Shown here one piece after another: positions 35,018-35,052 of a DNA stretch of 64,000 nt. Both the position numbers and the translations under genes were made by a program. Within the stretch, counting starts at the first letter, position 1, and every line of letters begins with the position of its first letter. The notes under the pieces are model-generated. The model worked only from the letters and a program-made list of their open reading frames with translations. It was not told where the DNA came from and did no database searches. The DNA is taken from assembly GCF_000026545.1 (NCBI RefSeq), contig NC_011601.1; one strand, given 5' to 3'. The stretch is from Escherichia coli O127:H6 str. E2348/69. GTDB lineage: Bacteria > Pseudomonadota > Gammaproteobacteria > Enterobacterales > Enterobacteriaceae.

Positions 35018-35052
35018 CTGGCCTGCAAAATTGATGCAATTTTGCAGGCCAG
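35018..35052. repeat. 35-bp palindrome (16-bp arms, 3-bp spacer)
   Basis: ctggcctgcaaaattg-atg-caattttgcaggccag, arms exactly reverse-complementary. Confidence 0.8.

Follow-up and report, generated by a model that had tools for sequence, protein, structure and literature searches.

Which kind of element is represented by the perfect 35-bp palindrome just downstream of lnt in Escherichia coli O127:H6 strain E2348/69? An earlier note, made from the sequence alone, had considered a protein-binding site, an RNA processing structure or a small member of a repeat family. The question was followed up in the window, i.e., the whole stretch of 64,000 nucleotides of contig NC_011601.1 that was analysed, and by comparisons with the complete genomes of E. 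coli and with representative genomes of other species.

The palindrome and its surroundings

The palindrome (35018–35052) consists of 16 + 3 + 16 nt, with the left arm CTGGCCTGCAAAATTG (35018–35033), the spacer ATG and the right arm CAATTTTGCAGGCCAG (35037–35052). The arms are 100% complementary, as had been described, and among perfect hairpin-type inverted repeats it is the longest in the window; the second-longest are terminators flanked by A/T, with arms of 12 nt. In 30 windows simulated with a first-order Markov model the longest arms reached only 8–12 nt, compared with 16 nt in the palindrome, and a chance origin was therefore rejected. Folded as RNA, the palindrome yielded –25.3 kcal/mol on both strands (z-scores –6.3 and –7.7). 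Folding of the lnt 3' UTR, which the earlier note had recommended, confirmed the 16-bp stem as the dominant structure: the region 34990–35066 in the lnt sense reached –38.1 kcal/mol (z = –7.4), the upper stem of the palindrome being A/U-rich and a 7-bp outer helix (GUGAAUG / CGUUCAC), which starts 1 nt past the lnt stop, enclosing the palindrome.

The gene lnt (35066–36607, minus strand) codes for an apolipoprotein N-acyltransferase of 513 aa with LNT_N and CN_hydrolase domains; it is essential and the final gene of the ybeZYX-lnt operon (bioRxiv 10.1101/2023.03.20.533420). From its TGA stop (35066–35068) to the start of the palindrome there are 13 nt in the sense of the mRNA; the former estimate of about 15 bp was thus right in placing the palindrome just past the stop, if not in the exact distance. 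The palindrome lies within the lnt 3' UTR, which is about 130 nt long and ends at an intrinsic terminator (34935–34961, minus strand), a hairpin GGGGCATGATTATCATGCCCC (34961–34941) of –16.3 kcal/mol followed by TTTTTT. No other terminator-like site was called for lnt, and this one was called for the minus strand alone. The palindrome is located upstream of it, with a gap of 56 nt, and the two structures are distinct, as had been stated before. A convergent gene (33056–34933, plus strand) for a protein of 625 aa with a rhomboid domain and a beta-propeller has its stop next to the lnt terminator. Between 34700 and 35300 no promoter-like site was found.

Several identities could be set aside. A U-tract after the palindrome is absent on either strand, the next letters being ATAAACCG in the lnt sense and CGCATCAT in the plus sense; with the real terminator at 34961–34941, the palindrome was rejected as a Rho-independent terminator. 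A known RNA family was likewise rejected, since no Rfam match was obtained for the palindrome region (best sub-threshold chance score 19.4 bits, gathering score 90).

REP and BIME-1 sequences in the element

The left side of the palindrome is REP sequence. A search with the REP pattern GCCKGATGCG-N7-CGNCTTATCMGGCCTRC, with mismatches allowed, gave a sole match in the 64 kb, a degenerate y-type REP unit on the plus strand (34993–35026; ACCGGATGCGGTGTGAACGGTTTATCTGGCCTGC), with 3 mismatches and 0 matches expected by chance. Its tail CTGGCCTGC, the last 9 nt, is identical with nt 1–9 of the left arm, so that the palindrome and the REP consensus overlap, contrary to the former opinion that the two are separate. 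The agreement with the REP consensus is apparent from the pattern match and from blastn matches to dispersed REP sites. The unit is intergenic, in keeping with a family that is extragenic and present in multiple copies.

When a 77-nt query (34990–35066) was run against 5,426 complete E. coli genomes, 5,425 of them matched its nt 2–41 or 2–53 at intergenic sites that are dispersed and carry no annotation (blastn, E ≤ 10; 5 places in the median genome); the median number of places occupied by the family varied with the query, from 5 up to 35 or more. The search for genomic copies, which had been proposed as a check, therefore gave a divided answer: the 35-mer itself is single-copy, and the REP sequence which supplies its left arm is dispersed.

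Three of the dispersed sites, yiiF-fdhE, yidB-gyrB and yejK-rplY, were read. The first two are canonical BIME-1 elements, composed of a y REP, an L linker with the motif ATTCAAyAyATTG and an inverted z1 REP; the yejK-rplY site is a y REP, which has TTATCTGGCCTGCAAAA in common with the left arm of the palindrome. A MAFFT alignment showed the region 34985–35070 to be colinear with the BIMEs that were read, except for one gap of 28 nt. Next to the y unit follows a shortened linker of 17 nt (35027–35043, unstranded; AAAATTGATGCAATTTT), that of the yidB-gyrB BIME-1 having about 35 nt. In the alignment it corresponds to the 5' portion of the L linker of BIME-1 (AAAATCATGCAAATTC...), and the portion with the IHF motif is missing from it. 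The remnant of an inverted, z1-like partner REP comes next (35044–35065, minus strand); its tail GCAGGCC and its head AGCGCATCAttCAC are kept, and about 10 nt of its interior, TGATAAGCGT, are lost. Comparison with the BIME-1 definition gave the z1 head remnant as AGCGCATCA, the y unit being present, and the assignment of the z1 remnant is supported by the inverted pair GATGCGGTG / CAGCGCATC. Altogether, about 28–30 nt are missing from 34993–35065 in comparison with a canonical BIME-1, among them the IHF motif and the greater part of z1. Against a synthetic y-L-z1 query the E2348/69 allele matched by blastn from end to end, in a single piece, with E = 2e-25.

The element has also lost several diagnostic features. 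The IHF motif WATCAANNNNTTR (ATTCAAyAyATTG) was not found at the E2348/69 element with up to one mismatch allowed, and an IHF site in the palindrome was dismissed on this ground; the motif is present in the allele of strain ATCC 8739 (see below), in the gyrB BIME and in the fdhE BIME. Traits of REP sequences are a conserved GTAG/CTAC at the foot of the palindrome and an imperfect palindrome of 30–40 nt, and TnpA_REP needs GTAG as well as a mismatch in the stem (PMC3333891). The tetranucleotide GTAG/CTAC is absent in 34980–35075, where GCAG/CTGC stands in its place; the CTGC variant is shared by two of the copies that were read, the canonical BIME-1 of yidB-gyrB and the y REP of yejK-rplY. The inner stem of the y unit is degraded (GGTG/CGGT instead of GGCG/CGCC), and the unit folded alone gave –9.6 kcal/mol on the plus strand (z = –1.06) and –3.1 kcal/mol in the lnt sense (z = +1.04). 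Owing to the missing tetranucleotide, the missing IHF motif and the poor folding of the y unit, the formal definitions of REP and BIME-1 no longer apply; since the long, IHF-bearing L linker is lacking and z1 is only a remnant, the element should be called BIME-1-derived rather than BIME-1. The requirement of TnpA_REP for GTAG and a stem mismatch suggests that the E2348/69 copy is probably immobile.

Other REP-like units are located in the window at 42030–42070, 51378–51409 and about 62340–62358, among them gtaggtcggataagacgcggcagcgtcgcatccgac and gcctgatgcgacgcggcagcgtcgcatccaac. The unit with gcctgatgcgacgcggcagcgtcgcatccaac is followed by a bidirectional terminator with A/T-flanked, 12-nt arms (51413–51445).

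Alleles in other strains

A 47-nt query comprising the palindrome found one locus only, in 204 of the 5,426 complete E. coli genomes (3.8%); the two places reported per record were taken as both strands of one palindrome, which fits one place per genome. Dispersed copies of the 35-mer were not found. Identity to the query was 100% in 47 carriers, 95–99% in 144 and 90–95% in 13, the perfect allele thus being present in 0.9% of complete E. coli genomes. Seven carriers were read. In strains E2348/69, 1002W03 and 19KM1776 all 16 of 16 arm pairs are formed (hairpin of –25.3 kcal/mol in the lnt sense); FDAARGOS_1268 has 15 of 16 (–22.1 kcal/mol), CLSC36 and PD23 have 14 of 16 (–19.8 kcal/mol), and 100117 has 13 of 16 (–16.3 kcal/mol), all again in the lnt sense. 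Four of the seven are therefore imperfect, with 1–3 arm mismatches, none of which is compensated; compensatory double changes in the stem did not occur among the seven. Perfect palindromes were present on two different flank haplotypes.

Two of the substitutions have a direction. G35020A in the palindrome leads to a U.G pair in the lnt sense and to A.C in the plus sense (–19.8 vs –14.9 kcal/mol), and T34956C in the stem of the terminator leads to G.U in the lnt sense and to C.A in the plus sense. Together they weakly suggest that both hairpins matter as RNA of the lnt sense.

Outside of E. coli, a search of one genome per species with the pattern GGCCTGCAAAA-N5-11-TTTTGCAGGCC gave 13 matches, none of them in Enterobacteriaceae. 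All came from unrelated taxa (Alteromonadaceae, Celeribacter, Treponema, Prevotella, Flavobacterium and others); presumably they are convergent terminator-like stems, unrelated to the element of E. coli.

The same site is occupied by other sequences in other strains. In ATCC 8739 and BL21, ...TACAAAATCACGTAAATTCAACATATTGCAAAAATCGC-GTAGGCCTGATAAGCGTAGCGCATCAGGCAC stands directly against the same lnt stop; this allele is made up of the L linker, an intact z1 REP and a mere stub of the y REP, and the region 34993–35065 aligns also with this BIME-1-like sequence. In Nissle 1917 the y head is fused to the z1 head (CATGCCGGATA joined to CATCAGGCAC), the whole interior of the BIME is gone and the locus is 58 nt shorter. 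Clone D i2 was tentatively assigned to the Nissle type by its equally short spacing and identical flanking proteins, and JCM 5491 by a partial match. The allele of SCU-108 is a mosaic, and K-12 possesses IS5D and unrelated DNA downstream of lnt. The 3' end of lnt is a small hotspot of BIME rearrangement, at least five types of alleles having been seen.

In K-12 MG1655, where IS5D is situated between gltI and lnt, the gene for the 625-aa rhomboid/beta-propeller protein is absent at this position. The C-terminus of Lnt and its stop are polymorphic: the protein ends with ...RQRRKR in E2348/69 (513 aa), with ...RARKR in ATCC 8739 and with ...RQRRK, followed by unrelated DNA, in K-12. The repeat-driven rearrangements extend into the last codons of the essential gene.

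In the E2348/69 allele y is kept and z1 is lost; in the ATCC 8739 allele z1 is kept and y is lost. The two alleles would thus seem to descend from one y-L-z1 ancestor by complementary deletions. A synthetic chimeric query detected no intact y-L-z1 at the lnt locus in the collection of complete genomes, and the ancestor is therefore a reconstruction, as is the order of the deletions described below.

Origin, possible functions and known systems

The best explanation, with a probability of about 0.8, is that a REP doublet of the BIME-1 type has decayed and that the palindrome is its core after rearrangement, now the central stem-loop, most likely without a function specific for this locus. The ancestor, an element of the BIME-1 type placed between the lnt stop and the terminator, would have had a long linker flanked by a y REP and an inverted z1 REP. 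Internal deletions of about 28–30 nt would have removed the IHF-binding part of the linker together with most of the z1 REP, so that only 17 nt now separate the tails of the two REPs. The left arm consists of 9 nt from the end of the y REP and 7 nt from the beginning of the linker; the right arm combines the end of the shortened linker with the tail that is left of the inverted partner REP. A few later substitutions would have produced the perfect arms in one sub-lineage. Among the three options of the earlier note, the small repeat-family member therefore came closest, a REP/BIME copy being the material of the palindrome.

The inner 7 nt of the arms (AAAATTG / CAATTTT) differ from the canonical linker, and every difference adds symmetry; it is the T at 35031 that renders the palindrome perfect. 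Perfect arms of 16 nt exceed what simple decay predicts. Such symmetry-raising changes hint at templated correction or at selection. Templated correction of quasipalindromes is a known mechanism, and the symmetry as well as the two flank haplotypes would be compatible with it; they would fit recombination and drift equally well. It is unlikely that the stem arose by an intrastrand template switch at the BIME core and was then retained in the E2348/69 sub-lineage because a stable hairpin 13 nt past the stop tunes the synthesis of Lnt by stalling ribosomes at termination.

If the decayed doublet acts at all, it would do so as a generic REP-type RNA stem-loop. According to the summary in PMC12306157, REP hairpins are barriers to 3' exonucleases (Newbury 1987, Higgins 1988), and REPs with a stop codon less than 16 nt away were reported to make ribosomes stall at termination and to reduce translation (Liang 2015). 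The stem-loop in the lnt 3' UTR, with –25 kcal/mol, or –38 kcal/mol with the outer helix, would accordingly be expected to block 3'-to-5' exonucleases and to stabilise the upstream ybeZYX-lnt message. Its distance of less than 16 nt from the lnt stop agrees with the distance rule and makes a translation brake conceivable; by analogy, such a role at lnt could exist. The notion of an RNA processing structure holds only in this generic sense of any 3'-UTR REP hairpin. That the allele is rare, decays without compensation and is replaced by other forms in most strains argues against the maintenance of a function specific to the perfect palindrome.

It is very improbable that the palindrome is a dedicated cis-regulatory RNA of lnt, at which the message is processed, an sRNA derived from the 3' UTR ends or translation is slowed under selection, and that its likeness to REP is incidental or co-opted. 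A very stable hairpin so close behind the stop of an essential gene, an outer helix from the first nucleotide past the stop, the lowered translation noted for stop-proximal REPs in the account of PMC12306157 and the G.U pair retained by G35020A in the lnt sense would all suit such an RNA; however, a palindrome carried by 3.8% of the genomes, and perfect in 0.9%, with uncompensated arm mismatches, a different sequence at this place in other strains, no Rfam match and no counterpart in the representative genomes of other species is hardly what would be expected of it. Somewhat less improbable, though still unlikely, is that the palindrome together with the REP serves as an attenuator or barrier of transcription, which slows or stops transcripts of the rhomboid gene before they run antisense into lnt, as was reported for BIMEs. 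The hairpin at 34941–34961 is called terminator-like for the minus strand alone and lacks a U-tract on the plus strand, plus-sense RNA of the palindrome folds as stably as that of the lnt sense (–25.3 kcal/mol), and transcription termination is listed among the roles of REPs (PMC3333891). Against this are the lack of a U-tract past the palindrome on either strand, the alleles of the Nissle type and of K-12, which are entirely without the palindrome, and the substitutions G35020A and T34956C, which keep pairing in the lnt sense only. Attenuation would be compatible with REP ancestry and is not an alternative to it.

An operator for a dimeric protein is the least credible of these proposals, and the suggestion of a protein-binding site found no support. 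A perfect inverted repeat of 16 bp with a 3-bp spacer has the appropriate form, and BIMEs bind IHF, gyrase and Pol I (PMC3333891); yet the palindrome is situated where two convergent genes end, in a region (34700–35300) devoid of promoter-like sites, and its symmetry, which is broken in most carriers, is not kept in related strains. The IHF motif of canonical BIME-1 linkers is deleted here, so that the element, as DNA, has lost the BIME-1 features for this known protein partner. The operator consensus sequences for PurR, TyrR and proteins of the LacI family are not known to fit the half-site spacing of the palindrome.

The element is thus of an ordinary and already understood kind, a locus-specific, rearranged REP/BIME relic, and its importance beyond annotation is small. 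It demonstrates that a perfect palindrome, however striking and statistically non-random, may turn out to be a common repeat in rearranged form; screens for REPs and BIMEs must therefore tolerate internal deletions and variants of the tetranucleotide, e.g., CTGC. The polymorphic 3' end of lnt could serve as a strain marker, and its alleles could provide a natural series for relating the stability of a hairpin near the stop to the expression of an essential gene.

Among known systems, BIME-1 (RIP/RIB) is similar in the colinear order of its parts, namely y REP, start of the L linker, and tail and head remnants of z1, and in its placement between convergent genes just past a stop, with a positional homologue in ATCC 8739 and BL21. 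Differences are the missing 28–30 nt or so, the lack of the IHF motif, GCAG in place of GTAG, and a spacing between the tetranucleotides of 17 nt, compared with about 35 nt in the yidB-gyrB BIME-1; in addition, the z1 REP is unable to form a hairpin of its own, and the centre is now a perfect 16-bp stem. REPINs are REP doublets which form a hairpin, a unit whose mobilisation is ascribed to RAYT / TnpA_REP. The E2348/69 element resembles them in that two inverted REP-derived halves produce one long hairpin (–38.1 kcal/mol), whereas its right half is truncated, the GTAG required by TnpA_REP (PMC3333891) is absent and this form exists as a single copy. A Rho-independent terminator is likewise a hairpin downstream of a gene, but the palindrome lacks a U-tract, and its upper stem is A/U-rich. 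With the single REPs of 3' UTRs, as these are described in PMC12306157 (Newbury 1987, Liang 2015), the element shares a stable stem-loop upstream of the real terminator, here 13 nt past the stop; in contrast to them, its fold is a new stem between two REP tails and not the imperfect palindrome of the REP itself.
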